Shown here piece by piece: positions 3,019 through 24,200 of a stretch of DNA of 31,271 nt (within the stretch, counting starts at the first letter, position 1; the number at the start of each line of letters is the position of its first letter). This DNA comes from Bacteroidales bacterium. Its GTDB lineage: Bacteria; Bacteroidota; Bacteroidia; Bacteroidales; JAADJA01. Made by a program: the position numbers and the translations under genes. The notes beneath the pieces are model-generated. The model did no database searches and was not told the origin of the DNA. It was given only the letters and a program-made list of their open reading frames with translations. Where the stretch lies: positions 1 through 31,271 of the forward strand of contig DAOVYU010000001.1 in the NCBI GenBank assembly GCA_030635465.1. Reading direction: 5' to 3'.

Positions 3019-3022
3019 TATT

Positions 3023-3286: not shown

Positions 3287-3296
3287 GTCTTATTAT

Positions 3297-4958: not shown

Positions 4959-4981
4959 GTTTGTTACTTGTTTTAAAGTTG

Positions 4982-5338: not shown

Positions 5339-5340
5339 AA

Positions 5341-5991: not shown

Positions 5992-5992
5992 A

Positions 5993-6139
5993 TCAATTCA
6001 TTGATAGATAAAAGTACAATTCTTTACTCGTGTTTCTACATTCGAATTCAGCCCAAGAAACATTATCCATTTTAAATATCTCAAACCTCATTGGCTTTAG
6101 TATATTATGGTTGTTAATAAGTTCTTTTCGAGAGTACAT
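5993..6139 (-). CDS. First early-operon ORF, 48 aa (start revised from 6277)
   Basis: The ORF-track start at 6277 would read through a terminator and a promoter; the ATG at 6139 lies just downstream of the promoter at 6167-6197. Confidence 0.5.
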   Translation of the reverse strand: MYSRKELINNHNILKPMRFEIFKMDNVSWAEFECRNTSKELYFYLSMN

Positions 6140-6166
6140 ATCATTATTTTTAAACGTTTGTTGTGT

Positions 6167-6197
6167 CAAATGTACGTATTTTTTTTTACAATACAAA
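6167..6197 (-). promoter_or_regulatory. Bacteroidota housekeeping-sigma promoter for the early operon
   Basis: TTTG (6197-6194), 19-nt spacer, TACATTTG (6174-6167); exact -33/-7 consensus. Confidence 0.85.
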
Positions 6198-6217
6198 TTT
6201 ATTTGTTTTATTTTAAC

Positions 6218-6250
6218 AAAAAGAAACCCCCAATTGAGAGTTGAGGGTTT
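6218..6250 (-). terminator. Intrinsic terminator
   Basis: AAACCCUCAA-cucucaa-UUGGGGGUUU 10-bp stem followed by CUUUUU. Confidence 0.75.
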
Positions 6251-6290
6251 AAAATGTAACAAACATTTTGCATACAAAGTATGTATACCA
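6218..6290 (-). ncRNA. Candidate ~70-nt small RNA
   Basis: Bounded by a -7 box (6301-6294) and the terminator; contains hairpins CAUAC/GUAUG and AAAAUGU/ACAUUUU. Confidence 0.4.
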
Positions 6291-6293
6291 TTG

Positions 6294-6326
6294 CAAATAT
6301 AAGATTAAATTATTAAAGTTCGTAAA
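6294..6326 (-). promoter_or_regulatory. Bacteroidota promoter (-7 TATATTTG; weak -33 TTTA, 21-nt spacer)
   Basis: TATATTTGCA at 6301-6292. Confidence 0.65.
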
Positions 6327-6332
6327 TAAATG

Positions 6333-6500
6333 AAAAAACCCACCTACTTTAATTTAATTTACGCTTACTGTCTATTAATAAAGCAAAGAACTTTTAATTA
6401 AAATGGTAAGAGAACTCCCAATTACTTGGTGGGTAATTAATCCTGGGCTATGTTCTCCACTCCCCAACGACTTGTGTTTAAAAAAAACTACCATTTATAA
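6333..6500 (-). ncRNA. Candidate ~165-nt structured RNA
   Basis: Nested stems AAAUGGUAG/UUACCAUUU, GAGAAC/GUUCUC and AAUUAC/GUAAUU; the apical ACCCACC is complementary to GGUGGGU just before a U-run; no ORF. Confidence 0.45.
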
Positions 6501-6507
6501 ATCTATT

Positions 6508-6515
6508 CAAATGTA
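6508..6515 (-). promoter_or_regulatory. -7 box TACATTTG immediately after the lysis terminator
   Basis: Exact TAnnTTTG; the -33 position is a T-run only. Confidence 0.5.
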
Positions 6516-6531
6516 CAACTTTATTTGTAAT

Positions 6532-6552
6532 AAAAAAACCCTCCGGAGAGGG
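6532..6552 (-). terminator. Intrinsic terminator ending the late/lysis transcript
   Basis: CCCUC-uccg-GAGGG followed by U7, ~30 nt after the last lysis gene. Confidence 0.8.
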
Positions 6553-6580
6553 CCAGATAAGTAATTGGAGTATTTAGCAG

Positions 6581-6961
6581 TTATAACAGTAGTAGAATCC
6601 CTATTGCACCGACACCAACACCTTTCAGAAATCCATAAAAGCCTTTACGCCTACCTCGTTTCTTCTCATTGGTAATCATGACTTTTTGGTTATCGATAAC
6701 GGTATTTAACAGGGTTATTTGGTCGTCTTTTAAACTTAAATCTTGCTTCTGGATGCCGATTATTTCACCCTGGACACCAATAACAGAATCCTTGACAACA
6801 ATGCGTATATTTAGAATTTTATTGTTCTCAATCGCTTCATTTCCACGTGTTATTTTAGCAAAAATACTGTCCCGTTGGGTTTCAGTTATCAATCGCCCTT
6901 GTGAATATATCCCACTTGTCGTCAGAATTAGCAGTATTATAATCAGTTTTAAGTTTTTCAT
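6581..6961 (-). CDS. Spanin-like partner: SPI signal peptide, coiled coil and C-terminal TM
   Basis: MKNLKLIIILLILTTSGIYS|Q, heptad-like middle, C-terminal GFYGFLKGVGVGAIGILLLL; no Cys. Confidence 0.5.
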   Translation of the reverse strand: MKNLKLIIILLILTTSGIYSQGRLITETQRDSIFAKITRGNEAIENNKILNIRIVVKDSVIGVQGEIIGIQKQDLSLKDDQITLLNTVIDNQKVMITNEKKRGRRKGFYGFLKGVGVGAIGILLLL

Positions 6962-7265
6962 ACTTTCTGTTTACGTTGTATAGTTGTCTTAGGTGTTTTT
7001 GGTCTAACGAGATTAGGGAATCTATTGCTATTTGCTTTCTAACCATTAATAAGCTATCCTGCTCGACTTTCTGTTGTATTGCAGTGTTGGTGTCCAGTAG
7101 TTGTATGTTCGTGTCTCTAAGCTCTTTATTTTCCTTTCTAAACCTACCTGTAGAACTCCATTGCTTGATAGTTGTGAACCCTAAAAATACGATAATAACA
7201 ATAGGAATAACATAACTTAATTTCAAATCAAATGCCGGGATGTTTACGTTTACCTTGTCTTTCAT
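6882..7265 (-). CDS. i-spanin (Rz)-like protein
   Basis: N-terminal TM (YVIPIVIIVFLGFTTI) then a long coiled coil; downstream of the endolysin and overlapping the next gene. Confidence 0.6.
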   Translation of the reverse strand: MKDKVNVNIPAFDLKLSYVIPIVIIVFLGFTTIKQWSSTGRFRKENKELRDTNIQLLDTNTAIQQKVEQDSLLMVRKQIAIDSLISLDQKHLRQLYNVNRKYEKLKTDYNTANSDDKWDIFTRAIDN

Positions 7266-7588
7266 TTTGTTTTCTTGTGATCTTCTATTCTGTCAACCCG
7301 TTCTTTAAGTGCATCTAATTCAACATCGTGTTCAGCTCTCGGCACAAATGTTTCTATTTTTTTACTTAGAGGCATATGTACCCCTACATCATCTACGTGT
7401 TTATTCAATATAATCCAATCTGCATCGGTTTTCATAACTGCGTTTTTCTGTAATGCTTCTATATTATCATCTGTTTTTTGTTTCCAAAACAGACCATTCG
7501 CCCCTATTGTCAGTAACAAAATTAAATTTGCCAATCCAACATACTTAATAAAATTATTTTTAAAATATACTTGGGCTGATTCTTTCAT
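7262..7588 (-). CDS. Single-TM lysis-cassette membrane protein
   Basis: TM YVGLANLILLLTIGANGLFW with a C-terminal short coiled coil; ATGA-type overlap with the downstream gene. Confidence 0.6.
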   Translation of the reverse strand: MKESAQVYFKNNFIKYVGLANLILLLTIGANGLFWKQKTDDNIEALQKNAVMKTDADWIILNKHVDDVGVHMPLSKKIETFVPRAEHDVELDALKERVDRIEDHKKTK

Positions 7589-7989
7589 AAATTCTTATAT
7601 TCATGTTTAGCATTAAATGAAGGGCAATATTTCTGAACACCCGCAAAATCCCGATGGCCTAAAACCTTTGCTTTTCTGAATATTCTTTTAAGAGTTGCCA
7701 CTAAATAAACAAGCGATGCTTTTTGTTGTGTCGTACGTGTATCTAAACCGCCTTTTCCTCCAATGTAACACACTCCTACACTGTTTTGGTTGTGACCCTT
7801 GACATGAGCCCCAGCAGTGTTTAAATCACGCCCTAATTGAATCGTACCGTCTAATAAAATAACGTAGTGATAACCCACATCTTTCCAGTTATTTTCTTCA
7901 ATATGCCATTTACGAATATCATCAAGATCAAAATGCACATCCTTTGGGGTGTCCGCACAATGAATTACTATTTGATTTATTGTTCTCAT
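7585..7989 (-). CDS. Endolysin, N-acetylmuramoyl-L-alanine amidase (Amidase_2, T7 gp3.5-like)
   Basis: IVIHCA, GYHY, GAHVKGHN..SVGVCYIGG, GHRD and CPSF zinc-amidase motifs. Confidence 0.95.
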   Translation of the reverse strand: MRTINQIVIHCADTPKDVHFDLDDIRKWHIEENNWKDVGYHYVILLDGTIQLGRDLNTAGAHVKGHNQNSVGVCYIGGKGGLDTRTTQQKASLVYLVATLKRIFRKAKVLGHRDFAGVQKYCPSFNAKHEYKNL

Positions 7990-8015
7990 TTTAATGCTGT
8001 TTTTATATTAAATTA

Positions 8016-8089
8016 AGGGCAGTATCTCAACCATTTGTGTTTTCTTACTATCACAATTCTTACTGAAGAATGGCTAAAATATCTGCCCT
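8016..8089 (-). promoter_or_regulatory. Long RNA hairpin upstream of the endolysin
   Basis: AGGGCAG(A)UAUUUUAGCCAUU pairs with AAUGGUUGAGAUACUGCCCU: 20 bp including G-U pairs, one bulge. Confidence 0.6.
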
Positions 8090-8094
8090 ATTCC

Positions 8095-8343
8095 TCATAT
8101 CACTAACTTAAACAATCCTAACAATTTCATAATAATAACACCTAATGCAGCAAAAAAAGCCCCTGCAAAAGTAGCCTTACCAATGATAACCTTTTTATCA
8201 GTTTTAAAGTTTCCAATGTCCCTAGTATTGATTTCAACTTGTTTAACAATACCGTTTTGTCCTGTTTTATCATTATTTTCCAACAGACCTTTAATGTACT
8301 GTATCTCTGACATTATAACATCTAATTTTTCATCTTGTTTCAT
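8095..8343 (-). CDS. Holin-like protein (coiled coil plus C-terminal TM)
   Basis: Hydrophilic N-terminal two-thirds, TM ATFAGAFFAALGVIIMKLL; directly upstream of the endolysin. Confidence 0.55.
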   Translation of the reverse strand: MKQDEKLDVIMSEIQYIKGLLENNDKTGQNGIVKQVEINTRDIGNFKTDKKVIIGKATFAGAFFAALGVIIMKLLGLFKLVI

Positions 8344-9689: not shown

Positions 9690-9705
9690 AATTTATCTAA
9701 TTTAA

Positions 9706-10308
9706 TTAATAATTTTCGTTAATATAATCATTTATAATTTGTTTTGCCTTGTCTAATATAGCCAACATCTTTGTATTTGTAGGCGGTGTAATCACATCTA
9801 ATCGACTTTTAGCAACTTTCCATAGTCCTAGTTCCAAAGGTAATAAAGCGTCAAATAACGTGTTGCTAATGCCCTCAAATTGGTTATTCGTTAGATTCCC
9901 GGAATCATATTCACGCATGACCCTATCCCAAATACGTTTATTCCATAACTGGCCATCTGATTTATAATCAAGTAATTTATTAGCAGAATTATCATTATCT
10001 AATTGGGTTTGATCGTAAGCATCAATTTCAGCTTGTGTAAAGTCTTTAATTGCATAAGTGAACACATCATTAACAGTATCCATATAAATAGTGTCACGCT
10101 TTTGATATTGAGTCAAATTGGGTTGTACAATATCCCTAAAACCAAGCGCATACAAATCGCTTTCAGTACTCGCTCTAAAATTGATTGTGTTATTCCAAAC
10201 TTTAGGAAGTGTGTTAAAAACTCTGATTTGTCCATTTATCTCAATGGCTTTCTGTCCGAATGCAATACCCGAAATCAGTAATGCAATTATTAAAAGTAGT
10301 TTTTTCAT
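9706..10308 (-). CDS. Signal-peptide protein with tail-fibre-assembly-chaperone-like N-domain (start revised from 10329)
   Basis: MKKLLLIIALLISGIAFG|Q; 'LGFRDIVQP...DVFTYAIKDFTQAEID'; ATG at 10308 leaves a 10-nt gap after the upstream stop. Confidence 0.65.
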   Translation of the reverse strand: MKKLLLIIALLISGIAFGQKAIEINGQIRVFNTLPKVWNNTINFRASTESDLYALGFRDIVQPNLTQYQKRDTIYMDTVNDVFTYAIKDFTQAEIDAYDQTQLDNDNSANKLLDYKSDGQLWNKRIWDRVMREYDSGNLTNNQFEGISNTLFDALLPLELGLWKVAKSRLDVITPPTNTKMLAILDKAKQIINDYINENY

Positions 10309-10318
10309 TTTATTTATT

Positions 10319-11200
10319 TTAAAGTCCATATTGATGCACTAAATCTATTGAAAATGATGTTGTATAAATTTTTGTACCATCAGGTTTAACATCCATTCCT
10401 CTCGGATTATTAGCTTCACTAGAAATGTCTAATAATTTAGAATCATAAGTCTTACTTGTAATATCCCACGGTGTAGATAATATCCATTGTTCCACGGCTT
10501 CAGTACTATTCATAATCACCCAAAATTTTAACCCTGTCGGTGAAATAGCACAATCAAAAGGGGTATCACCTGGGCTATCTGCCCACGCCCCACTATTTGA
10601 AGTTGATGATAAATCACTTATATCATACGGGGTGCCTGTTGAATGTCTATAAATTAAATTTGCGCTTGTGCCTGTCAAATATACATCAAGGCCACCATTA
10701 CCCCAAAACATCCCATACATCCATGTAACCCCGTGAGAATAACTTACACTATCATAAGTAGCTGTATCTAAATCTCCTGGTGTTGAACATGAAAATTGAT
10801 ATAATGTCGTCTGTGTAGCAAGTATAACATTAGAACCTCCATTATACCATGTTAAACTCGTAAATGCTGAAGCTCCGGTTATCGTTATTTCAGCATTATA
10901 GGTAACAGTTCCTAAATCATAATCGACAGTTGGTAAATTCTCATAGATTATTGCTCCACCGTTTTTAATTGTATTGAGTATCGATCCGTCAGGATTCCAT
11001 CTTGCACCAAATGGAGCCGTATTTGGACTTGTAGCAAATGATTTACTATCATAACTGAATAAATCAATATCAGGCCATTCAGTAACGCCATCTACTACTT
11101 GAGGTAATATTTTATTCCCTAAAACTTGTGAGTAACTTGTAAATGAAATTGACGTTATCAGTAATAACGATAATAATATATTTCTGAAAAGTGTTTTCAT
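10319..11200 (-). CDS. Signal-peptide beta-propeller protein (adhesin-like)
   Basis: MKTLFRNILLSLLLITSISFTSYS|Q; repeated blades (.PDG..., TPGDLDTATY, TPYDIS, TPWDITSKTY). Confidence 0.75.
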   Translation of the reverse strand: MKTLFRNILLSLLLITSISFTSYSQVLGNKILPQVVDGVTEWPDIDLFSYDSKSFATSPNTAPFGARWNPDGSILNTIKNGGAIIYENLPTVDYDLGTVTYNAEITITGASAFTSLTWYNGGSNVILATQTTLYQFSCSTPGDLDTATYDSVSYSHGVTWMYGMFWGNGGLDVYLTGTSANLIYRHSTGTPYDISDLSSTSNSGAWADSPGDTPFDCAISPTGLKFWVIMNSTEAVEQWILSTPWDITSKTYDSKLLDISSEANNPRGMDVKPDGTKIYTTSFSIDLVHQYGL

Positions 11201-11204
11201 AATC

Positions 11205-13619
11205 TTAATAGTTTATTAGTCCGGCCACGAATGTCGGAGTTGCCGAATCATGACAATATATTTGAATTACATTGGTTTTTGTGCCATCATAAGCACTCAG
11301 ATCACCTTTTACACCTGTTGGTAAAGTCAATGTATAGTCCCCGTCAATGATTAAACTGATTGTTTTGCCCTCCTGTACATCTGAGAATGTTAATGTGGTA
11401 TTTGCAACTAAGGTCTTTTCGAATTGTATTCCTAAATCCCAATCTACAACTGTACCAGATAAAGCAGAAGTTGCTTTTAATTCTGTTTTCAGTTCAGCAA
11501 CCCCAACGGCAAGAGCCTGCCATATTAACCCGGTAGTTTCTCCTGAAGCAGCAGTTAATATATAATCATTTGTGCCAACTGGCAAACGTGCATCAACAGT
11601 GCTGTATGTAAATAAGTCCCCTTTTGTTGTTAAAGGACTTGAAAATATATCACTTGTAAATGCTAATGTTCCGCTTCCATCCTGGAATGTATATGTCCTA
11701 TCTGCTGTATTTGTATTTGTAAATAACCCATTAAAAGTATCTGCAACATTTCTTAATTTGAAAGTCCCATCATCAAATGTTTTTGCTCCTGTGACGCTTT
11801 GTGCTCCATCCGTAAACATGACATTATCTACAAACTCAAGTGCATTTTCAGCACCGGCAACAGCAACAATTTTACCTCCTTGACTTGAATAAGATGAAGG
11901 TGTATCCGTATGAGCTGAAAATGTGGTGTGCCCACCGCCACCGCCACCACCACCGCCACCGGCAGATGTATTTGGAACTTGACCTCTTAAATCTTCAGTA
12001 TCATATAATTCCCAATCTGTACCATTGGCTTGTAGAACATAAGTGAATCTAGCTATTAGGAAACCTTTACCCTTAAAAGGTGCTGGTATATCATACACTG
12101 AATAATTTAATCCATCCGATACAGCATCATCAGGTGATGTTTTAGCATATGCATCTGTTGGTAAATTTATCATTAAATGGCTTGCTTCTCCTGTTTTATT
12201 TTGAACACCCCACAATACAAAACTAAAACTTGAATTAGCTAATGTAACACCTAAAGCATCTGATGTTTGAGCATTTAAATTAGTTACATCTACATATGGT
12301 GTTGTGAAGTGATTAGCAATATGTACATCATCGCTGACTTCGATATCCATTGCCGGAAATGTCTGTTTATGTAATTGATATATAACACCTGATGTATTTG
12401 AAACATAAACATTACTCGCTGTTGGAGAATCTACAGTACATGTTCCTACCGCCCCACTACTCCATGACGCAGGATCTTGTCTTAGACGTTCCCCAAGATG
12501 TAATATATGCCCATTGTCTCCTACTATTTTAATACGGTCATTCCAATTTCTATTTACTAAAGGGTCATCTTCTTGTACCTTTGAAGCACTTTGTACAAAT
12601 ACATCTGCTAATTTTATATGTTCTGCTACTGGAAATCCACTCGTGCTTACGGTCAATACTTTAGTAGATTCAGGAATGTAAATATAATTTATTTGTGGAT
12701 TTGTGTCAGTACCAGCGGTTAAAGAAATAGTTTCAGGTGGAGTACAATCTAAATTAGTGAATCCGTCACTAAATACCATTGTTAAATCACCGCCTCCTGT
12801 TTGCTCTAAAGATCCTGTAATAGTTGCACCGTCACTTGATACAGTAAAATCTACATTCTGTCTAAAAGACCCATCCCAGGCACTATTAAATGTATCTGCA
12901 ATTACATTTGTAAAATTAATAGCTACTTGCCCTTCTGTTGCATGAATTTTCAATGCTCCACCAATTAATAATGCATATGAAGGGAATTCAGGTCTTACAT
13001 CAGTAAAATCCCCAGCTACTGCATCTGATAGATATAAATCAGCCCCCGGTGCAATACCATCTGTATCAACATCACTGACCCGACCCATTCTAGTTCCCAT
13101 ACCTAAAGCTCCATTAGCCATAGTATTGGTTGCCATAAATAATGTGCCTTCACAAGTTGAGTGATCGTCTGCTTTGGCTAAAATAACAGTTGGTATTATT
13201 TCAGAACCTACAATCGTTGCTCCAGTTGGTTTTACTATTTTTCCATTTGGAATTTCAACACCAGTATCATTATATATGAGAAAATAAAACTCCTGTCCAA
13301 CTTGTAATATTGGCCCTAATCCTGTTGGAATATTCAATGTATGAAAATCAGTATTCCATGTTACGGATTCACCATCATTAAAAGTCACACTATCTAATGG
13401 GAAATCATTTATATCGGCTTTTAATTTATCAATAAAATCAGATGTTTTTATCCATTTCATTGCTTTATCGGACTCCATAACGAGTATGCTATCAATCTGC
13501 GTACCCTCTGTTATACCCGATAGTGTTGTAGGTAAACTAATATCATTTACTTGTGAAAATCCCGTAAACATTACGAGGATCATCGCTAAGGTTGTAAATA
13601 GTTTCTTAATTGTTTTCAT
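11205..13619 (-). CDS. Signal-peptide-bearing tail-fibre-like protein (804 aa)
   Basis: MKTIKKLFTTLAMILVMFTGFS|Q; fibre-type motifs WN..FHTLNI..G.ILQVGQE, TF...TDTPSSY..QGGKIVAV...ENALEF, AQSVTGAKTF, KGDLFTY....ARLPVGT; C-terminal adaptor-like domain. Confidence 0.7.
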   Translation of the reverse strand: MKTIKKLFTTLAMILVMFTGFSQVNDISLPTTLSGITEGTQIDSILVMESDKAMKWIKTSDFIDKLKADINDFPLDSVTFNDGESVTWNTDFHTLNIPTGLGPILQVGQEFYFLIYNDTGVEIPNGKIVKPTGATIVGSEIIPTVILAKADDHSTCEGTLFMATNTMANGALGMGTRMGRVSDVDTDGIAPGADLYLSDAVAGDFTDVRPEFPSYALLIGGALKIHATEGQVAINFTNVIADTFNSAWDGSFRQNVDFTVSSDGATITGSLEQTGGGDLTMVFSDGFTNLDCTPPETISLTAGTDTNPQINYIYIPESTKVLTVSTSGFPVAEHIKLADVFVQSASKVQEDDPLVNRNWNDRIKIVGDNGHILHLGERLRQDPASWSSGAVGTCTVDSPTASNVYVSNTSGVIYQLHKQTFPAMDIEVSDDVHIANHFTTPYVDVTNLNAQTSDALGVTLANSSFSFVLWGVQNKTGEASHLMINLPTDAYAKTSPDDAVSDGLNYSVYDIPAPFKGKGFLIARFTYVLQANGTDWELYDTEDLRGQVPNTSAGGGGGGGGGGHTTFSAHTDTPSSYSSQGGKIVAVAGAENALEFVDNVMFTDGAQSVTGAKTFDDGTFKLRNVADTFNGLFTNTNTADRTYTFQDGSGTLAFTSDIFSSPLTTKGDLFTYSTVDARLPVGTNDYILTAASGETTGLIWQALAVGVAELKTELKATSALSGTVVDWDLGIQFEKTLVANTTLTFSDVQEGKTISLIIDGDYTLTLPTGVKGDLSAYDGTKTNVIQIYCHDSATPTFVAGLINY
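11931..11960 (-). repeat. Ten tandem Gly codons (GGN)10
   Basis: Plus strand ccc acc gcc acc gcc acc acc acc gcc acc, encoding G10 in the 804-aa protein. Confidence 0.95.
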
Positions 13620-13629
13620 ATCTTATATT

Positions 13630-14985
13630 TTAAATTAATGCCAAACTTCCGATTGGGTTAAATGGTACCCAACTACCAACAAGGTCTTTATCACCAGCCT
13701 TTTTGAATGCTGCCGGCCACCAGGTCGTAGTATCCCAGAATCCACTATAAATTATATCATTATCTTCTATTGTCGATGCAAATGAAGGATTACTGTTATC
13801 AGGATGTTTCCTTAAACTAAAGCCATTTCCATTCACTGTTACTGTTGGGGCTGCACTGATAATTAAATCATTCAAAGTCTGGAAAGCAATCTGAGCGTTA
13901 ACATCTGCTGAACTTAAATTATTACCAAAACTGCTCACATCAAGTGAAACATCTTCACCTGTTATTCCTACAGGATCAGGAGTTTCTCCACCAATTTGTA
14001 CATAGATTTTATCGACTTGGTACAATATTTTGTTTGTTGATTTATTCCAGAATACAATTTTATCAAATGCGGTTCCACCAAAAATACCAAACATTTGTTT
14101 GAATAAATATACTTCCTGTTCAGTTACAAGATCATTGACATTTATCATGTTTTTATTTATGACAATCGTATCATTTATTAGTGTAACACCGCTAAATAAT
14201 TGTACTTGGATGTGATCATTACCCCAGGCTCTTAAACTCTGAATACTTAATTTAATAAAATCAAAAGTAGAGATTTGTACCGGTGTTGAGTTGAACAATG
14301 AGAATTCATCATTGGTATTTAGATCATCAATCGTTTTAATAGACACAGTTCCTTCAATTGGGGCATCTGTATTCGCTAAATCGATTCTTGCAGCACTTGT
14401 ATTTTCTGCTGTGTCAGATTCACCTCCTACTTCCTGTAGGTTTTCTAAATACCAGGTTTGAGTATCTATATTTGATGGTTCTGTTGATTGTCCTGGTATC
14501 TCAGCAAATGTTAATTCTACTTGTGAGCTAGTCTCAACGAGTGGCTTAATTGGAGCAGGGCCAACAGCGCTTTCTATAACGTCTATTAATCCTGCATCAT
14601 CGCCATATATTGTATCAATTCTGTTATTTGTTATTATTGGGTCAGAGTCCGATAAAACAATAGTAAATCCATGAGAATAAAATAAAATATTATTCAATCG
14701 ATATACTAAATTTACTGTTTTATATGTGAACCCACCTACATGAACAATATTACCACTTACTCTTCCATTCTTACCAACACTGTTTGCATCCAATACCGCT
14801 GCGTCTATTATCTGCTGAGCATTGATATACTGGCTTATTCCATTTACTTCAACCCGAATAGCAGATGAACTATTAAAATTTGTTTGAAAAGGGAAATCAG
14901 TTGTCTTTTTAATACTGGCTATGAGCGTATTGAGAGACAACGTTATGTCTGATAATTGCTGTAAAATTAATTTATACTCATCCAT
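13630..14985 (-). CDS. Tail/fibre-associated protein, possibly with a carbohydrate-binding jelly-roll domain
   Basis: Position among tail genes; beta-rich middle (FDFIKLSIQS...IQVQLFSG...FDKIVF); acidic. Confidence 0.55.
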   Translation of the reverse strand: MDEYKLILQQLSDITLSLNTLIASIKKTTDFPFQTNFNSSSAIRVEVNGISQYINAQQIIDAAVLDANSVGKNGRVSGNIVHVGGFTYKTVNLVYRLNNILFYSHGFTIVLSDSDPIITNNRIDTIYGDDAGLIDVIESAVGPAPIKPLVETSSQVELTFAEIPGQSTEPSNIDTQTWYLENLQEVGGESDTAENTSAARIDLANTDAPIEGTVSIKTIDDLNTNDEFSLFNSTPVQISTFDFIKLSIQSLRAWGNDHIQVQLFSGVTLINDTIVINKNMINVNDLVTEQEVYLFKQMFGIFGGTAFDKIVFWNKSTNKILYQVDKIYVQIGGETPDPVGITGEDVSLDVSSFGNNLSSADVNAQIAFQTLNDLIISAAPTVTVNGNGFSLRKHPDNSNPSFASTIEDNDIIYSGFWDTTTWWPAAFKKAGDKDLVGSWVPFNPIGSLALI

Positions 14986-14995
14986 GGCTTCTAAT

Positions 14996-15027
14996 ATTGT
15001 GTAAATTTAAATATATCATTACATTTG
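14996..15027 (+). promoter_or_regulatory. Promoter of the lone plus-strand gene
   Basis: ATTG (14996-14999), 20-nt spacer, TACATTTG (15020-15027). Confidence 0.7.
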
Positions 15028-15030
15028 TAT

Positions 15031-15228
15031 ATGATTTTGTTCAATCTCATGATTCTATTACCTTTAGTCGGTTTTTTTATCGGCAGATCAATCGGTAATT
15101 TACTAACTCCTAAATCTCAAAACTCTCAAAACAATGATTCAAATAACGTAGTCATTCATAATCATATCACTGAAAATCATCTTCATGTTACCGATGAACA
15201 AATAAAATCCATCGCTTCTAAAAATTAA
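15031..15228 (+). CDS. Small single-TM moron-like protein (65 aa), antisense to the tail operon
   Basis: TM ILFNLMILLPLVGFFIG; His-rich IHNHITENHLHV; fills an exact intergenic gap; own promoter; stop overlaps the convergent stop in TTAA. Confidence 0.75.
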   Translation: MILFNLMILLPLVGFFIGRSIGNLLTPKSQNSQNNDSNNVVIHNHITENHLHVTDEQIKSIASKN

Positions 15229-17216
15229 TACCCCACTATGTTATCACCTCCGGATATAATTCCTGGTAATTCAGCTGCTTCACTTTGTGGGACCTCTTGA
15301 GTCAACAAGTCAAATAACGTTCCTGATTTGGCCTGTATTGACTTGATATGATACAAATTAGTATCACCCAATGGTCCATCAACTTCAATTTCATCATTTT
15401 TGGTATATGCAACCCCGTCAAGAGTTAATACCTCACATGAAAGGGCTATCAATGCCTTTATCATCATTCCTGTGGCTATAGGTTCAAATTCGAATTCTTT
15501 TAACTCATATATTTTTGAATCCAGTAAAATGGTCCTTGTATCGCCTCGATTCACTTCACTTGGATCAATCTTATCGGCACCTTGTTTTATCAATTTCAAT
15601 CGCATTATGTGTTCGATTCCTGTTGAATAATTGATTTTTGTATTTCTTAAATTTTTATACTTCATTTCAAGAGTGCCGGTTTGTCTCGTCTTAACATTTA
15701 TACCTTCACTTATGAATGTAACAGTATCGAAATTACTGTCAGTTTCTACAATTTCAACACTGATATTCTGGTCTACATAAACACCCATATCAATATTGAA
15801 TTCATATTCATCATAATTTTCTTTGTTATAAACAGATGAAACAACTTTGACGGTATCCGGATCCGTAAAAGGATTCACAATAACTAATACCTCAGCTTTT
15901 TTATCTTCATCAAAAATAATCTGTTCAATTACAAACCATGTACCATCAAAACTTACCCATCCGCCTATTTTACCCCAAAATGGCAGATTCCCATTCAAAG
16001 CATAATCACCCGTTTCTAATCCGGTAGTGTAATCATATATCTTCCCTGTTTGGAAATAGATTCCTGTTTTACCGAATCCAACATCGTAAAGTATACCGTC
16101 TCTTTTATCATTTTGATTCAAGTAAGCTACTGTTTTAACTACCGGTATGACATCTTCGGTTTCATCTTCCTTGATCACTTTTGCGGTAATAGTTTCATAA
16201 TTAGATCGAAGTTGAGTTGTTACTTTGTTATCGCATGCCTGGAATAATTGTATTGTTTTTTCTGGTAGATCAACATCTTCCTGACAACTCAGTGTGTTAT
16301 CATCATTTTTATATTCACCACAATCACCGAATGTTGTTTCTCTTATGTATCGAATACTGTTTTCTTTTGCTGGTAATTCAGCATTTGGAATTGATACCCC
16401 AACAAAACCACCTTCAAAATCAGCTACACTAAAATCCTTTGTAAATGAACAACCCAAATCATCTTTGACATACATGGTATAATCACCGGTAGCAATACCA
16501 GGAAATACATTTGAAGTTTGATAGGTAATATCATCTAACGAATATTCTAATGTCAACCCTTGTATATTCGTAATCAAAACAGTTACAGTTGCGCCATCAG
16601 GTGAATTTAACACGTTAATGATCGTATTATCAACAGATAAGAATTGGGGTAAGCTAAAAGTTTCTGAATCGGTATTGTCGTCTGCATCTTTAACAATCAA
16701 ACTCAAATCAATATTGCGTACAGAATCATAATCGAATGGATTGTCGGCATTTGCTTCCTCCCCAGACCCTTTGTCTATAAAAACAGCCAAACGGCTTGTA
16801 GTGACGTTTATTTTAACGTTATTGCATGGATCAGTGTCTGCTTCACTGAATGAAATATCATCAATGGTAATGGCTTCTGTTTCAGTTTCATTAAAAACAT
16901 CAACGGTAATTCTCCCGGAACTGGTATTGATTTCTTCACTAAATACCATATTGGATTGTGTCGCTGTAATAGTTACTACATTCAAATTGAAAGTTATCAC
17001 ATACAAACTTGTGGCATTATAATCCAACCCCACGGCATCTTGATAAAAGAACGCACAATTGTTCAGATCACTACCGATAGTTGTCAAAAAATGCCCTAAT
17101 CTCAATTCAACAAATTCTTCATCAAGATTTGTAGCATTTAAACTATCACCTATTACCAAATTATCACTGACATTTGGTATTGATACGAACGTTATTTCTA
17201 TATAACTTTTAGCCAT
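15225..17216 (-). CDS. Tail structural protein (663 aa) with a SprB-like Ig repeat
   Basis: Acidic, beta-rich; LEYSLDDITYQTSNVFPGIATGDYTMYVKDDLGCS. Confidence 0.65.
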   Translation of the reverse strand: MAKSYIEITFVSIPNVSDNLVIGDSLNATNLDEEFVELRLGHFLTTIGSDLNNCAFFYQDAVGLDYNATSLYVITFNLNVVTITATQSNMVFSEEINTSSGRITVDVFNETETEAITIDDISFSEADTDPCNNVKINVTTSRLAVFIDKGSGEEANADNPFDYDSVRNIDLSLIVKDADDNTDSETFSLPQFLSVDNTIINVLNSPDGATVTVLITNIQGLTLEYSLDDITYQTSNVFPGIATGDYTMYVKDDLGCSFTKDFSVADFEGGFVGVSIPNAELPAKENSIRYIRETTFGDCGEYKNDDNTLSCQEDVDLPEKTIQLFQACDNKVTTQLRSNYETITAKVIKEDETEDVIPVVKTVAYLNQNDKRDGILYDVGFGKTGIYFQTGKIYDYTTGLETGDYALNGNLPFWGKIGGWVSFDGTWFVIEQIIFDEDKKAEVLVIVNPFTDPDTVKVVSSVYNKENYDEYEFNIDMGVYVDQNISVEIVETDSNFDTVTFISEGINVKTRQTGTLEMKYKNLRNTKINYSTGIEHIMRLKLIKQGADKIDPSEVNRGDTRTILLDSKIYELKEFEFEPIATGMMIKALIALSCEVLTLDGVAYTKNDEIEVDGPLGDTNLYHIKSIQAKSGTLFDLLTQEVPQSEAAELPGIISGGDNIVGY

Positions 17217-17217
17217 A

Positions 17218-17607
17218 TTATTTGATTTCTATTGTTGATAATTTACCATCATTGCCGATGATCACAGCGTAATCTTTAGTCCCATCAGGGGTTTTTACTA
17301 TCCCTACAGTACTATGAGATTGTAAATACACATTTACTTTGTCTTGTTTGGTTTTAATGTCTGCTTTTTCTGTTTTTTCCTGAGTGCTTAAATCCCTGAA
17401 TCTTTGTACTTTATAAATCTTTACATCGTCATCTGTTAAAGGAATTAACTCTTGATCTTCTGTAATTACAGGTACCTCAACATCCCAGTAACCTTCTTGA
17501 TTCCATAAATGTTCCATCGTTAAAAGATTAACCGATGTTTTACCAATCAAATGTCTTGTTGGTATACTTGTACTACGCCATATTTCGTTTTCTTTTTTTA
17601 CTATCAT
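17218..17607 (-). CDS. Tail-fibre-assembly-chaperone-like protein (129 aa)
   Basis: EGYWDVEVP motif resembles LGFRDIVQP of 9706-10308; C-terminal KTPDGTKDYAVIIGNDGKLST. Confidence 0.5.
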   Translation of the reverse strand: MIVKKENEIWRSTSIPTRHLIGKTSVNLLTMEHLWNQEGYWDVEVPVITEDQELIPLTDDDVKIYKVQRFRDLSTQEKTEKADIKTKQDKVNVYLQSHSTVGIVKTPDGTKDYAVIIGNDGKLSTIEIK

Positions 17608-18356
17608 AATCCAAATCTTGTTTTATAAAAATCGAAGTTTTGTTGCACTTCAGTTACATTAAATTCTTTATTGTCGTAAAAATTAAATATTGGTAATTTA
17701 CCATGTAGCACCTGACCGCCATTTAAACTGGCATTTGTATTTACTTGGCTAGTACCTCCAAAAGCAATACTATTAGTTTTTAATGTTTTATTAATATTAT
17801 TTACATATAGCTTAAAATTAGGTACACTTATTGCTGAACCTCCATTATAAGTAAATACGACCTGATACCAATTCCCCGAAGCAAAAGTACTATCATCGGT
17901 ATTCATATTAACCCATGAACCAAATTCAGTACCCGACCCAAATACAATATTATTAATGCCATAATTTACGTGTGATTGCGAAAGAAAACAAATATAAGAA
18001 AATGATGTATTCGTTTTAATCTCAAATAATGCAGGAAACCCCACAAATGTATCAAGATAAAACCATGTTTCTATTGTGAATTTAGTACTTAATGTTATGG
18101 AATAACCTGTATTCCCTAATACATCATCGTTGTTACCATCAAATGTCAATACTCCACCATTAGCAGCACTAAAGCCAACACCATTCCTTAATGTAGCATC
18201 GTAATTATTTGCAGTTAAATCAAACCAATTAGTACCACTCCCAGGATAGCTTGCAGCATTACCCGAATCAAGATTAACAGTTGCCCCTGCAACAATAACA
18301 GCTCCGTTGCCTTTTTTCTTTAACCATAATTTTTTCTTTCCTATTATATTTTTCAT
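17604..18356 (-). CDS. LamG / concanavalin-A-like lectin-domain adhesin
   Basis: LDSGNAASYPGSGTNWFDL...ATL.NG, LTFDG.ND, FTIETW, NWYQVVFTY, KLYVN, EVQQNF. Confidence 0.85.
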   Translation of the reverse strand: MKNIIGKKKLWLKKKGNGAVIVAGATVNLDSGNAASYPGSGTNWFDLTANNYDATLRNGVGFSAANGGVLTFDGNNDDVLGNTGYSITLSTKFTIETWFYLDTFVGFPALFEIKTNTSFSYICFLSQSHVNYGINNIVFGSGTEFGSWVNMNTDDSTFASGNWYQVVFTYNGGSAISVPNFKLYVNNINKTLKTNSIAFGGTSQVNTNASLNGGQVLHGKLPIFNFYDNKEFNVTEVQQNFDFYKTRFGL

Positions 18357-18889
18357 GTTGCAAGATTTTCGTTAGCAAATAAAACTGACTCACTTCCACT
18401 TGCTGAATTTTTAATAGATGCAATAATATGATTTGTAACTGCACCACTATAAGATTCTGAACTTGGAGTTTCCTCCCAATCAGGAGTGTTGAATGTTGGC
18501 ACAAAACTTCCGTCTAAATATATTTCGATAGTATTAGATTTACCCTCTACAAATCCTATATCTGAAAATACTGTATTAGCTGTCATTGTTAATATAAATA
18601 CTGCACCTAATTTACTCCAATCAATATCATAAGTGCCTGATACGTTAGCTATGATTATTTCAGAACCTTCTGCTATTTTATTATCAACATATTTTTTAGT
18701 TGCTGGTTCATAATCTTCTGTTGGTGTAAATGTTTCCGTTTGATCTTTTTGAAGTACATTTCCTGCTAACGCATTGTGCTTGGTTTTGATTTCAGTCACA
18801 TCAACAGCCCTAATTGTCTTTACTATTGGTAAACCCGATTCTTTTGCCTTTACTTTATTGTCGAATGTTATTAAATTACTTACTGCCAT
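18353..18889 (-). CDS. Short tail-fibre adaptor protein
   Basis: PATKKYVD fibre motif; C-domain IDWS....FILTMTANTVFS...EGK..I...DG. Confidence 0.65.
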   Translation of the reverse strand: MAVSNLITFDNKVKAKESGLPIVKTIRAVDVTEIKTKHNALAGNVLQKDQTETFTPTEDYEPATKKYVDNKIAEGSEIIIANVSGTYDIDWSKLGAVFILTMTANTVFSDIGFVEGKSNTIEIYLDGSFVPTFNTPDWEETPSSESYSGAVTNHIIASIKNSASGSESVLFANENLAT

Positions 18890-18892
18890 ATC

Positions 18893-21208
18893 TTAGTATA
18901 ATTCATTATCTAATACGTTATCCAATCCTTTTGATACATCTACAATACCAATAGGTTTTATCGTTTCACTGAGCGGTAAATTCGCTCTTCTTAATTTCCA
19001 TTTACCAGTTTCTTCAACTACTAAATTGTCAAAAAATCCTTTTTCTATTAGCCCATTCTCATTTTTAAATTCAATGATGCCTTGCAGATTTGGGATCTCT
19101 TTCCCTTGAACTATTGTTTTACCTTTAATCAGTTGCTTTAGATCATAGTCTACAGGAAACTCAAATTCTACATATTGATTTGTAAAAAGAGCAGTATCAA
19201 ATTGATCATTCTTAATATCTCCCGATTCATCAAATAATACCCCGTTTTGAATAGCTTTTAGTTTGTCATTTGCGCTCGATCCCCCATACCTGACAAATTC
19301 GTATGGGTACCGTATAAAGCTTGAAGAAATAACCGACCCGTGATTGCGTAGCATTTGGGTTTGTGTCAATCTTAAATTAGTAGCACTATCCGGACTATAG
19401 ATACCCGTTGGCTGTTCATCAAAGTCATCTTGCCAAAAACGTTCTTCAAATACCCCTGTATCTGGGTCACTTCGTTTTGCGTCTTTTACAAATATTTTCT
19501 TATCCCGTTTGGTATCAGTGGTACCAAATCCTGACTTCTGTTTTCGCCTGGTTAATTCTTCACCTAATGAATCCCGTCCATATTTACAAATTATTTCATA
19601 AGTGTTTTGTAGAATGTCCAGACATGTTGCAAAAGAACTTTTACCATTGTACTCATCAAGACCCATTACTTCATCATATTCTTCACCCTGTTGAGAACCT
19701 ACATCGACAGTCGAATAATATTGGTCAACTATTTTAGTTCTGTTTACATTTTTAACTTTAACATACTCAAAAACACCATTCTCATTGATTGTCCCCAAAC
19801 GTATAGTAGTATTCCGATTATAGAAATATGATTTTTTCTCAACAATAACCTTTTCAATCCCAACCCTTTTTTCAATTCCATAACCTAAATTTTTAAGGGC
19901 TGTATATGATTTTATGTAATCATTCCATGAAGTAGTTATTCCTTTATAACGTTCATCGCCTTGAGCAAATCCACGAATCCAGAATCCATGATAAGCAGGT
20001 ATTAATGATGAATCACCATCTGCATCATAACCGATATCTGTTCTTCCAAATTCATCGGATATCATCAAATCCTCTTCATCAGTGATTATCTCAAGTATTC
20101 TATTACCCATTTCAAAAGGTAGTAAACAGTTCGTTTGAGTAGCATCTATATTGCTGTCTTGCTGTACATCAATACTACATTCCACATTATTGAAATTCAC
20201 TTTTAAATCGCCATCATAATCAATAAATAAAATGGTGCCTCCAAATTTTGCTTGCCCATACCATCGTAATGATAAACTTTCCCCTGCCTGAACATACACT
20301 AAACTTGTCCACGTAAAACTAATTACATGATTATTCATATTATAAGGGTTTGGTACAGTATATAAAGTTTGTTCACTTACATGAGTAAAATTTAAACCAT
20401 CTCCAAATTTAACTAGATCGACTCTCATAATAGCATCCCTTAAATCATCTACCTTTATAACTTCAATAGTCGCTGTCATTGAAATAGTAAGATTTATTAT
20501 TTTAGTTATATCATTATTTTTATAAAACATTGTACTGGCAGAACCAACACCGACATCTGTGGTAAAAATATTCTTAAATGTAGATGTAATTCTTTCATCA
20601 GATGAATATGTTATTGTAGTCGGTACTCCCAATGATCCAAATCTTGTATTCCCACCTTGAAAATTCATTCTGAAAGCATCACTGTTACGATTGGCATCGG
20701 TAGTTTCTAGCAATGATTGTAAAAATATTTTTCTTCCGGATAATGCTAACCTTTTTAACACCAAAGGATCCATTGCATTACCATTCAAAGTCGTCAATCT
20801 CTCCAATTCTATTTGTTGGTTTAACCTTGACTTCATTACTTGCCCTATCCCACTTATATTAAGTTTTAGAGTCACATAAGTTTCAGCTATTTCCAGGGTA
20901 CTAAAATCCAAAAATCCTTCCTCATCACGTTCCCAATCTCTTGTTTCGGGATTACGAATATCGATCAGTAAGCGTAATCTCGCTTTAATATCATAATACT
21001 CATCAATCAATAAAATGAAAGCCTTGGCATTACCCACAAATTTTATCTCACGGCTTTGATTGAAAACAATTCCATCACTTTTTTTATGCCTGGAATACTC
21101 AAATCTAATCACATCATATTCTACCGGCTCATCTATAACCAAAGGAGTGTATGCGTTATGTTGTAACGTAAATCTGTGAGTATCGGTATATTCTAATAAT
21201 AAACTCAT
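18893..21208 (-). CDS. Tail tip / baseplate-hub-type protein (771 aa)
   Basis: Directly after the TMP; size and composition only. Confidence 0.6.
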   Translation of the reverse strand: MSLLLEYTDTHRFTLQHNAYTPLVIDEPVEYDVIRFEYSRHKKSDGIVFNQSREIKFVGNAKAFILLIDEYYDIKARLRLLIDIRNPETRDWERDEEGFLDFSTLEIAETYVTLKLNISGIGQVMKSRLNQQIELERLTTLNGNAMDPLVLKRLALSGRKIFLQSLLETTDANRNSDAFRMNFQGGNTRFGSLGVPTTITYSSDERITSTFKNIFTTDVGVGSASTMFYKNNDITKIINLTISMTATIEVIKVDDLRDAIMRVDLVKFGDGLNFTHVSEQTLYTVPNPYNMNNHVISFTWTSLVYVQAGESLSLRWYGQAKFGGTILFIDYDGDLKVNFNNVECSIDVQQDSNIDATQTNCLLPFEMGNRILEIITDEEDLMISDEFGRTDIGYDADGDSSLIPAYHGFWIRGFAQGDERYKGITTSWNDYIKSYTALKNLGYGIEKRVGIEKVIVEKKSYFYNRNTTIRLGTINENGVFEYVKVKNVNRTKIVDQYYSTVDVGSQQGEEYDEVMGLDEYNGKSSFATCLDILQNTYEIICKYGRDSLGEELTRRKQKSGFGTTDTKRDKKIFVKDAKRSDPDTGVFEERFWQDDFDEQPTGIYSPDSATNLRLTQTQMLRNHGSVISSSFIRYPYEFVRYGGSSANDKLKAIQNGVLFDESGDIKNDQFDTALFTNQYVEFEFPVDYDLKQLIKGKTIVQGKEIPNLQGIIEFKNENGLIEKGFFDNLVVEETGKWKLRRANLPLSETIKPIGIVDVSKGLDNVLDNELY

Positions 21209-24200
21209 TTAATCCCAATTAAGATTGTTATATCTGAATAATTCATGATTTATATCCGGTGGTGGTGTCTGATTATTGGTAACACTCAATTTTAATTTTT
21301 CAATTGATGACCTTGTTTTTCTTTGCTCGTTAATCATTGACATATAAGCGTCAAACGTTTCTCCTGATTCATGTATGCTTAAATTCCTGTCCTGTATCTC
21401 GAAATTAGCCATGATTGCAGCCGTTTTTACTTTCTCATATTCATCAACACTGGTATGAACTGTAGTACCTCTTGCTAAATTCAATACAGATGGCCTGTCA
21501 ACTATGTAAGGATTCTTATTTGGTTCTTCAATAACTTCCGGTCTTTTTTCAGAAACATACGCAGGGCCACCTTTAAAACCTTCAACACCTTTTTCAAAAC
21601 GAGGTATTGGAGAAGCTAATACAGCAGCTATTTGTGCAGCACCCAAAGCTGATACAAATGCCGTCAATAATCCGGCTGATATGCCAAAATCAAACTTAGG
21701 TACCTGAGCCCAGATACTAACTATTGCTTGGGCTGTGTTAATTGCTATCTCAGTGGCAGCTATTGCCTTATTGAATTTAGCTTGGCGTACCTGTTCCTCC
21801 CGTTTTTTAGCTTCTAATTCAGTCCTTTTTTGTTCCTGTTCAGCACGTATTGCATCTTGCTGTACGGAATCACCTTCAGCTAATTCAAATTGTCGGTCAT
21901 AGAATTCATCATTAGCCTCAATTTGTTCATCTATTTTCCTGATATTAGAATCAAAAATACTTGATTGAATATCACCCAACACACTGAATGCAGCACCAAT
22001 ACCCTGCAATGCATTATCGAAACCATCAACAAAACCGGTTATTAATGTCTCTAAGTTCTGAGCATCCAAATTCAATGCAGAGGCAATAGTCTGTGATGCT
22101 TCTCTGATCTTTGTAGTTTTAAATGCTTGTAGTCGCTCTTCTGCTTCTCTTTGTGTCTCTAAATCAGCTAAAATACCATCTGTTACAGTCTGAGATAACG
22201 CTAATTTTAAAGCAGCTAATTGCTGTTCTAATGATGCACGCTGTTCGAATGACAGATTAGCACTTAACAACTCCGTTCGTACTACACCAATCTGTATTTT
22301 GATCGTTTCCTCGGCTGCCTTTCTTTTTATGTCAATGATATCCTGTTCGAATTTCGCTATAATTCTAGCTCTTTCTTCCTGAGTTAATTCCTCATTCGCT
22401 ATTTCTTCCTGGAATTGCTTTTCACGGGCTGTCAATAATTTGTTTAATGACTCAGTACGTACCGCATTTACATTATCAAGATTCTCTTTTAACTTATCGA
22501 ATTCACTCTTCAGGATTGCTTCAACTCTTTTCTGTGAATCTTTAACCAATTGTTCACGTGCTTCATTGAACTCTTCATCGATAAGCAATAATTCATCTTT
22601 GCCTCCTTTGGATGTTGCTATTGCTTGATCACGTTCTAAAACCAATAATTTATGACCTTCAAATACTGATCTTCGATGGAACTCCAATCGTTCATTTAGA
22701 GATAATTCCTCATTTTCTGAAATCTCTTCATTACTATCAATCTCATTTTTTACCCTAAATTTAGCTAATTCAAATGCATCTTTACGTAATTTCTTTTGTG
22801 CTTTTTCATTAATCTTTTTCTGCTCATTCGTTACTCTTTCCTCTTCATCAATAATAAAATCTGAATTTGTTTTTATAATTCCTCGTAATGTTTGTGCATT
22901 GATAATAGCTGATCGGATGAATCTTTTTTGACCATCCGTGAACTGTGCAGCAACATCAATCTGTTTATCAAGACTAGCAATATCATCACCCCTTGCCGAT
23001 GTCAATAACCCAATTGCAACACGTACTTTAGTTGCATTTACGCCCTGGTCCTCCAATGTTTTGCGTAAGTCATCCTCACCACGTTGTAAAGCATCTGAAG
23101 CTATATTCAACCGATCATAACCCTTAGCAAACTCACCAATATCTTTAGTCAATTTATTTACTCTTAATTCCGTTCTTTCAGCTTCATCATTGAACTCACT
23201 CAATTCTTCAGTAGCTTCTTTGGCACCCACCCCAAATGCCACAAATATAGCAGCAGCAGCAGATAATACACCTAATAAGATACCCACCGGACTTGTTTTA
23301 GTTACTATACTGAATAATTTCATCGCTTTGGTGGCTTTAGCTATTCCCCCGGCCAGTGCTATCTTAGCGAATTTCAATGCAATTATCGATGCCGTATATG
23401 CTTTGGTTAATAAAGAAACTGAAATCATAATCAATTTATACAACACGAAAGCCTTGACTACTCTAAATACAAAAGTAATAACCGGTCTAAGATTCTCAGC
23501 CAGCAATCGAATATTTTCTTTTAGTGTAACTGTAATATCATTCGCCTCATCCTCTTCCAAAATGATTCCCTGCCATGCTGATCTCAATAACTGTAATGCA
23601 CCATCCAGGGTGTCCAGTTCTTTATCTGCCATACTTTGAGCAGTTCCGGCAGACCTTTGCAGTGATTCATCCAATTCATTCGTTAAATCGATGTTATTTG
23701 ATAATACAGCAGCAGATACAGCAGCCCGTTTTCCAAATTCATCATTGGCAGCCGTTAATTTGTCTTGACTGTCTTTTATAGTTTGGAGTATCTTTCCATA
23801 ATCATCACCTTTTTTTGCAGCCTCAATAAATATATTCCTTAATGCTGTTGATGAAGTTGATACATCAATACCGGAATCCGATAGTTTACCCATCAATGCA
23901 ACTAATTTCGTAAATGGTATTCCGGCAGCATTTGCAGCACCAGCAACAATAGGTAATCCTTTTTCCAGTTTCTCAAAAGTCAATGCACTCTTAGCAGTTG
24001 CCAATGATAGTACATCTAATATTTCCGGAGCATCTATTGTACTAAAATCATCAAACGTATTAACAATAGCTCCAACCAAATTAGCTGTTTGGGCTAAGTT
24101 AGCATTCAAAGCAATAGACCCCTGAATTGTAGCTTCGGTAAGATCAATAATCTCGGATTGGCTGAACCCTAAACGGGCATAAGCAATTTGTAATTCTGTG

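Follow-up and report, generated by a model that had tools for sequence, protein, structure and literature searches.

The DNA analyzed here is a stretch of 31,271 bases (hereafter the window), which is the entire contig DAOVYU010000001.1 of a 2.0-Mb, 65%-complete metagenome assembly (GCA_030635465.1). It is the contig of a siphovirus-like, uncultured, marine-type phage, with a G+C content of ~0.33 and all its long genes on the minus strand. The fibre region contains two sets of adjacent genes, one for proteins of 178, 250 and 129 amino acids (aa) and the other for proteins of 804, 293 and 207 aa, the latter preceded by a gene for a 451-aa protein. These sets, and the C-terminal domain shared by the 178-aa and 804-aa proteins, are the subject of this analysis (Table 1). 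In the order of transcription, the contig encodes a tail protein (phrog_6195), a 1283-aa tape measure and a 771-aa virion structural protein (phrog_15220), followed by the 178-aa, 250-aa and 129-aa genes, a 663-aa virion structural protein (phrog_26672) and the 451-aa protein, and then by the 804-aa, 293-aa and 207-aa genes, small membrane proteins with an amidase endolysin, and RecT with a helicase. No terminal repeat was found on the contig, and megablast of the fibre region (9700-21300) gave no match among GenBank phages.

Table 1. Positions of the genes and domains of the two fibre gene sets in the window.
Feature	Position	Strand	Remarks
178-aa adaptor protein (putative)	18353..18889	-	Residues 1-70, putative N-terminal anchor; residues 79-178, proposed socket domain
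Socket domain, copy 1	18356..18655	-	Residues 79-178 of the 178-aa protein; predicted beta-sandwich; net charge -9
250-aa LamG-type adhesin	17604..18356	-	PF13385; N-terminal peptide MKNIIGKKKLWLKKKG
129-aa third gene	17218..17607	-	GYWDVEVP in the N-half
C-half of the 129-aa protein	17218..17442	-	Residues 75-129; KQDKVNVYLQSHSTV..KTPDGTKDYAVIIGNDGKLSTIEIK
451-aa protein	13630..14985	-	Fused homologue in L072
804-aa long fibre protein	11205..13619	-	Predicted signal peptide 1-23, poly-Gly hinge, joint motif 655-717, C-terminal socket
Poly-Gly hinge	11930..11962	-	Residues 553-563 of the 804-aa protein; (GGY)10 trinucleotide run
Joint motif	11513..11656	-	Residues 655-702 of the 804-aa protein; TTKGDLFTYS..RLPVGTNDYILTA..GL.W
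Socket domain, copy 2	11238..11471	-	Residues 717-794 of the 804-aa protein; net charge -6
293-aa variable protein	10319..11200	-	Second of the exported trio; predicted signal peptide 1-25
Listed start of the 207-aa reading frame	10308..10329	-	Overlaps the 293-aa gene end by 11 nucleotides (nt)
207-aa protein	9706..10329	-	Third of the exported trio; predicted signal peptide; likely start Met8

The likeness between the C-termini of the 178-aa and 804-aa proteins, which the first-pass annotation of this DNA had noticed by eye, is real. Pairwise BLASTP of the two proteins is weak (E 4.1 in the register of that annotation, E 0.013 in another), and a six-frame search of the 2-Mb assembly with the 178-aa protein gave the C-terminus of the 804-aa protein as the sole non-self match (E 0.023, 39% identity). 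A hidden Markov model (HMM) built from 28 C-domains, none of them from the 804-aa family, matched residues 717-794 of the 804-aa protein with E 2.9e-13 and 43.6 bits, and an HMM alignment of both C-domains, proposed earlier as a check and run here as hhalign, gave 97.8% probability and E 1.2e-12. An independent profile search of the assembly found the same C-terminus at E 1.8e-13 and no third copy. By these profile comparisons, the C-domains of the two proteins are homologous, the ~last 100 residues of the 178-aa protein corresponding to residues 717-794 of the 804-aa protein; this domain is called the socket in what follows.

An exhaustive search of 1.8 billion representative proteins gave 783 metagenomic relatives of the 178-aa protein (E<=0.001), part of which rest on the N-terminal fibre motif only. 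The relatives show two modules, these being the fibre motif PATKKYVD (residues ~30-78), which is repeated in many long fibre proteins, and the socket (residues 79-178), always found at the extreme C-terminus of relatives that span 89-1411 aa. The socket has no match in Pfam, PHROG or, by profile search, among PDB sequences. In tblastn against 50,697 GenBank phage records, a consensus-like socket protein had no match, the 178-aa protein matched through its N-terminal fibre motif only, and the 804-aa protein matched only with its N-proximal and hinge motifs. Likewise, the socket profile found nothing in 300 genomes of the same class, nor did the 804-aa family alignment in prokaryote genome contigs; IMG/VR gave nothing with single proteins and 4 + 2 loci with alignments. 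Residues 1-70 of the 178-aa protein are 83% identical to the N-terminus of P0126 (594 aa), whose distal ~500 residues resemble leucine-rich repeats and include no socket. Because P0126 pairs the same N-terminus with a different distal part, the adaptor anchor appears to be modular and separable from what follows it. Fibre regions with two proteins that end in a socket are also seen in other phages, including L072 (Ga0102814_10004457; 2514-8279, with proteins of 1137 aa and 112 aa), L009 (5496-8294) and L011 (1079-4792), so multiple sockets per phage recur outside the window.

The gene that follows the 178-aa gene encodes a LamG protein, as had been proposed (PF13385 over residues 75-237, E 7.6e-8, 33.1 bits with the gathering cut-off at 27.6); the 250-aa protein also matches the C-terminal end (659-892) of the 892-position profile phrog_24074. 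Pfam and PHROG scans of the 178-aa, 129-aa, 293-aa and 207-aa proteins gave nothing. The N-terminal basic/hydrophobic peptide of the 250-aa protein, MKNIIGKKKLWLKKKG, is the putative "plug", and its partnership with the socket was followed across the 74 loci of the metagenome scan, to which IMG/VR added a few. Downstream sequence of at least 200 nt was available for 74 domain genes; for 61 of these, an open reading frame (ORF) with a basic N-terminus begins no more than 12 nt away, basic being defined as a net charge of at least +2 in partner residues 2-13. Seen from the partner side, ORFs of the MRRRG type have a socket gene upstream in 57/57 cases, directly so in 53. The junction TAATGA, with a 1-nt overlap, occurs at 51 junctions, and the 178/250 and 250/129 junctions of the window are ATGA overlaps.

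The brine clade, with 44 complete pairs from one set of brine-type metagenomes, allows the two genes to be compared position by position. Identity in this clade is 90.6% for the socket domains and 89.5% for partner residues 1-9 (MRRRGSRLR), whereas beyond residue 12 the partners are unrelated in 86% of pairs and fall into at least 8 unrelated families (single linkage). An adhesin swap among relatives, which the first-pass annotation had suggested looking for, is found in both sets, namely in this clade and, for the second set, between the window and the complete 50-kb IMG/VR phage L082. The pairing of a constant socket with a variable, plug-bearing adhesin is well supported.

A conserved end of the first gene and start of the second could also be a recombination boundary or a translation re-initiation signal, acting at the DNA or RNA level with no docking involved. 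The constant region does stop abruptly at codon 9-10 of the second gene (in the brine clade all positions are variable from codon 10 on), the TAATGA junction is nearly invariant in that clade, and the partner start region is purine-rich. Nevertheless, plug codons 5, 7 and 8 vary synonymously with the residue kept (e.g., AGA, AGG and CGA for Arg7), which shows that the plug peptide itself is under selection. Additionally, a basic-then-hydrophobic N-terminus is kept in distant, independent lineages with different DNA (MIGKKKLWF, MGKKKMFM, MKKKKMFM, MGGKKMFF and MSRGRITWF, next to MKNIIGKKKLWL in the window), and fused forms retain a similar linker, KTKGLIF. An explanation confined to DNA or RNA is thus held to be highly improbable. 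Plug-like N-termini also occur in L009, L074, L075 and L069, and LamG lectins are frequent among the plug-bearing proteins, as in the window, L009, L074 (four copies) and L045. Natural fusions include L073, which has the socket, KTKGLIFPP and LamG in one chain, and L076, in which 225 further residues follow the socket. Twin-arginine export was considered for MRRRGSRL and rejected, as no hydrophobic region follows the peptide.

The brine contigs (L007-L070; LV_Brine..., JGI1221J..., Ga0209414...) number more than 50 with a ~91% identical socket, borne on stalks that range from 112 to 761 aa; as a natural library of cassettes for host binding placed behind a single docking module, the group is unusually rich. 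Downstream of many of the brine partners lies a conserved 106-aa protein, which has a signal peptide (MKHLLLLIALISFSANA|QEKF...).

The second set differs in carrying signal peptides. The proposal that this trio is exported is supported by predicted Sec signal peptides on all three proteins, read from the sequence as ending in ...GFS|QV (804-aa), ...SYS|QV (293-aa) and ...AFG|QK (207-aa). Each has a basic n-region and a hydrophobic h-region; small residues precede the cleavage site, and the +1 residue is Gln, a feature of Sec (signal peptidase I) signal peptides of Bacteroidota type. The signal peptide of the 804-aa protein is kept in the homologues P0004, P0005 and P0028 (45-95% identity), and all three genes of L082 keep theirs, while homologues in L004, L072 and L076 are without one. 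For the 207-aa family, a signal peptide is present only in the window and L082 copies; the mature 207-aa protein of the window starts with QKAIEING and the L004 protein with MKAIEING. The 1137-aa protein of L072, which has no signal peptide, matches first the 451-aa protein (76-379) and then the 804-aa protein (104-788), and the 451-aa protein is probably the proximal part of the long fibre, judging from this fused homologue.

The 293-aa gene starts 4 nt past the 804-aa stop, and its product has the mature N-terminus QVLGNKILPQ. The middle proteins of the window and L082 are unrelated (E 2.7), whereas the flanking proteins are 47-48% identical; because the middle gene is swapped and its neighbours are kept, the exported set is also modular. 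The L082 middle protein has a signal peptide and the mature N-terminus QLLGD, so that both mature N-termini read Q[VL]LG[ND]. The likeness that had been quoted between the two adhesins of the window, IIGKKKL against VLGNKIL, is at chance level, since an equal-scoring 7-mer occurs in 31% of the control pairs, which were N-terminal 40-mers of window proteins, and BLASTP of the 250-aa against the 293-aa protein gave nothing; the family-level data give partial support to a short N-terminal peptide similarity. As to the role of the exported trio, it is conceivable, and regarded as a speculative option, that it forms a second socket-and-plug fibre assembled outside the cytoplasm with the docking module that the virion adaptor also has. 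Such a fibre could be a decoy or receptor mask at the cell envelope, made from the host-recognition kit of the phage itself, or could be added to particles after export; the basic/hydrophobic plug may have been the evolutionary seed of the signal peptide on the second protein.

The 804-aa protein has two further features of its own. The poly-Gly hinge of its homologues differs in length and composition (GGGGGGGGG, GGAGAGGGG, GGGIGGVG), and the length of the hinge may change by in-frame slippage. The TTKGDLFTYS motif, located shortly before the socket, recurs with 60-80% identity in hundreds of fibre proteins, which end in differing tips (LamG, NHL, F5/8-C, peptidase S74, pectate lyase), and by this distribution looks like a widespread joint before exchangeable tips.

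AlphaFold2, run with a 36-sequence alignment, modelled residues 78-178 of the 178-aa protein as an all-beta sandwich with a predicted local distance difference test (pLDDT) score >90 and left the N-terminal part poorly defined. The best fold match is the C-terminal knob of the Pa223 spike; further matches include a baseplate protein of Klebsiella phage KP1, residues 79-180 of CBA120 TSP4 (two crystal forms), the C-terminus of an Acinetobacter phage tailspike, CpaA and, by Foldseek, T4 gp9. The alignment to TSP4 chain 7rej_A spans 79-180, which is XD1 and not XD2/XD3. The socket protein of L076 also carries a T4_gp9_10_N domain (E 2.1e-9). The socket is thus modelled with confidence as a beta-sandwich, which appears to resemble the T4 gp9/gp10 and CBA120 TSP4 XD1 domains and a phage spike knob, and it has no detectable sequence similarity to the gp9 middle domain, gp10 D1 or TSP4 XD1. 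The domains of gp9, gp10 and TSP4 lie within their chains and are viewed as spacers, whereas the socket ends its chain. An electrostatic lock between socket and plug was rejected as a general rule, as the charge of the family is ordinary, although both sockets of the window are acidic.

Taken together, the pairing, the conservation of the plug, the swaps, the fusions and the modular anchor fit an adaptor that joins an anchor to a socket and holds an exchangeable adhesin, and it is considered fairly probable that the C-domain docks the receptor-binding protein (RBP) encoded by the next gene. In this scheme, the 178-aa protein would be a short adaptor, held to the tail tip by its first ~70 residues and with the C-terminal socket exposed distally. 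The 250-aa LamG lectin, produced by coupled translation, would attach through its basic/hydrophobic N-terminal peptide (MKNIIGKKKLWL...) and bind the host, and the 129-aa protein, also translationally coupled and a probable distant relative of the 207-aa family, may aid assembly. The second set would repeat the plan on a long fibre, with the 451-aa and 804-aa proteins as a stalk with a socket, the 293-aa protein as the variable part and the 207-aa protein as the third member. For this scheme we infer a trimeric state, contact between socket and plug, N-terminal anchoring, glycan binding and any chaperone role.

Alternatively, the shared C-domain could itself be the distal receptor-binding knob, with the downstream proteins attached elsewhere and their peptide bound to another baseplate component. 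This is thought unlikely, given that a receptor-binding tip is expected to vary, whereas here the domain keeps ~91% conservation as the gene behind it is exchanged; L073 and L076 have the domain inside the chain, ahead of LamG or another domain, and its adjacency and coupling with plug-bearing genes are strict. A number of observations do weigh against docking, some of them in favour of such a knob. The C-terminal knob of Pa223 gp52 is described by its authors as distal and TNF-like (10.1101/2025.06.11.659172), and the same-fold domains of CpaA and StcE bind glycans, so the socket could itself bind a receptor; XD1 is published as a "spacer" and not as a docking site (PMC8825819), and the net charge of the socket across the family is -2.0 against a background of -1.8. 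Most of the pairing counts come from one brine clade and are non-independent, and in L004, L009 (first copy) and L076 the next gene is 207-like or another fibre gene without a plug. For the exported set, the N-terminus of the partner is a signal peptide, and its putative mature plug draws on QVLGN and QLLGD, plus FLGNGG in L072. Finally, L082 has one socket only, so the twin arrangement is not a fixed feature, and the duplication is specific to the lineage of the window.

Docking of this kind has precedents that are experimentally established in K1-5, G7C and KP32 (PMC6872550; PMC13352976). The branched RBP systems include the K1-5/SP6 gp37 adaptor with its 7- and 11-residue peptides, G7C gp66/gp63.1, Klebsiella KP32/KP34 and CBA120 TSP1-4 (PMC6872550; PMC13352976; PMC8825819). 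As in those systems, an anchor-bearing protein here offers a small beta-domain, the neighbouring exchangeable RBP has a short conserved N-terminal peptide, and swaps affect the binding part, with anchor, dock and peptide being reused. In contrast to them, the dock forms a sequence family of its own, for which Pfam, PHROG and PDB sequences gave no match. Its C-terminal place suggests that the fibre is extended end-on and not branched sideways, and the dock belongs to a siphovirus-like, uncultured phage with a strongly basic peptide and with one copy on an exported protein. Docking in CBA120 TSP4 is by XD2/XD3 (T4 gp10 D2/D3), whereas XD1 is the best fold match within TSP4 here. The fold points to an XD1-type sandwich or knob, the socket sequences make up a new family and the docking domain is placed at the chain end; membership of the T4 gp10 D2/D3 docking family is not demonstrable for the socket. 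The scheme of an adaptor or branching domain with a peptide is already known, and what is new is the socket sequence family.

The first-pass annotation had chosen T2/S16 gp37-gp38 as its analogue. That comparison holds for a separate adhesin encoded downstream of the fibre: in T2/T6/S16 a separately encoded adhesin on the fibre tip sets host range and its gene follows the fibre gene. The adaptor/peptide systems of K1-5, G7C, KP32 and CBA120 are the closer analogue. gp38, which has glycine-rich receptor-binding motifs, binds gp37 by a folded N-terminal domain and not by a short peptide, and the adhesins of the present phages consist of LamG lectins or unrelated domains of other kinds; neither sequence nor fold gave evidence of relatedness to gp37-gp38, no gp38 profile having been compared. 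The lactococcal BppU-BppL pair of TP901-1/Tuc2009 (PMC4742702) shares the siphovirus order of tape measure, distal tail proteins, adaptor and receptor-binding protein, but no similarity was detected, and BppU is larger and holds three BppL trimers.

Phage host range is set by exchangeable receptor-binding proteins, and the rules of their docking are known for only a few enterobacterial phage groups. The present comparison defines an unannotated ~100-residue domain of docking type, together with the peptide of its partner, in phages that are uncultured and mostly of marine and brine origin. If the binding is true, a simple rule would serve to spot the genes that really bind the host in metagenomic phages of this kind, the XD1-type fold would gain a possible docking role, and plug and socket would make a compact pair of natural origin. 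Through its duplicate on a fibre with a predicted signal peptide, the module is tied to the proposed export of a fibre kit.

How far the two sets correspond beyond the socket depends on the third genes, which the first-pass annotation had linked through EGYWDVEVP in the 129-aa protein and LGFRDIVQP in the 207-aa protein. That motif likeness does not hold, as a 9-mer at least as good occurs in 100% of shuffles of the 129-aa protein, and BLASTP of the two proteins gave E 43. The link itself fares better with a family HMM, from which the window's own 207-aa protein was excluded: the 129-aa protein scores 9.2 bits, a value reached by 3/2000 shuffles (P ~0.0015). By hhalign, residues 36-89 of the 129-aa protein align with residues 35-88 of the mature 207-aa protein (P 0.0028, 11% probability). 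These profile scores are suggestive of a distant relationship of the 129-aa protein to the 207-aa family, which is taken as probable.

The twin trio could nonetheless be over-read, the C-domain being all that the two sets share and their second and third genes being unconnected. BLASTP finds nothing for either the 250-aa/293-aa or the 129-aa/207-aa pair, the short motifs quoted earlier are at chance level, and the hhalign probability of the 129-aa protein with the 207-aa family is just 11%. This explanation retains some weight but is on balance not favoured, given that the 129-aa protein is the top scorer of the 207-family HMM among the 26 other proteins of the window (the runner-up has 3.5 bits), that the aligned segment lies at an equal distance from the N-terminus in both proteins, and that the same three-gene order is found elsewhere. 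207-family homologues adjoin socket genes in L004, L007, L010, L045, L067, L072, L075, L076 and L082. The order of socket, plug-bearing variable gene and 207-like gene occurs in L045, L067, L072 and L075, with the trio also in L082; in L007 and L010 the 207-like gene lies between the socket gene and the plug-bearing gene. A modular system present twice, as first proposed, is partly upheld, in its homologous C-domains, its adhesin swaps and the signal peptides of its second set, and not in the short motif likenesses.

The C-half of the 129-aa protein is 68-75% identical in three small metagenomic proteins, P0272-P0274, whose N-halves differ. The detectable homologues share the C-half only, so the 129-aa protein appears to be built from two modules. 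The 207-aa family has the conserved motifs GF[YR][DE][VI][VI]xP and FTY, and the 207-aa protein is modelled (pLDDT 85.6) as an N-terminal beta domain with a C-terminal four-helix bundle, for which PDB folds gave only generic helical-bundle matches. The 207-family profile found nothing among PDB sequences, seven members of the family had no Pfam match at E<=1, and tblastn of the 207-aa and 129-aa proteins against GenBank phages gave no match.

The label "chaperone" given earlier to these third genes is not upheld by profiles: Caudo_TAP (PF02413), DUF4376 (PF14301) and Phage_tail_APC (PF16778) have no match anywhere in the assembly at E<=10. Structure offers a weak lead, in that Foldseek against BFVD matches the 207-aa protein to entries auto-named "Phage tail assembly chaperone protein" (E 2e-3 to 4e-3, probability 0.98-1.0, template modelling (TM) score only 0.31-0.39). 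ESM Atlas leads to chaperones for the 207-aa family are weak (scores <0.9), and for the 129-aa protein this atlas was uninformative. One member of the family matches phrog_4912, "tail fiber assembly" (E 0.0033). A comparison with lambda Tfa gave nothing. Kinship of the 129-aa protein with P2 gpG was considered, with 8/12 identical residues between EGFSVVEVPDIT and EGYWDVEVPVIT, and was rejected, as hhalign was not significant (P 0.1). A chaperone role of the third genes is, on these models, only a lead. With regard to the start of the 207-aa gene, the second Met (residue 8) gives MKKLLLIIALLISGIAFG|Q, and Met8 is the likelier start because the resulting N-terminus matches that of the L082 homologue.

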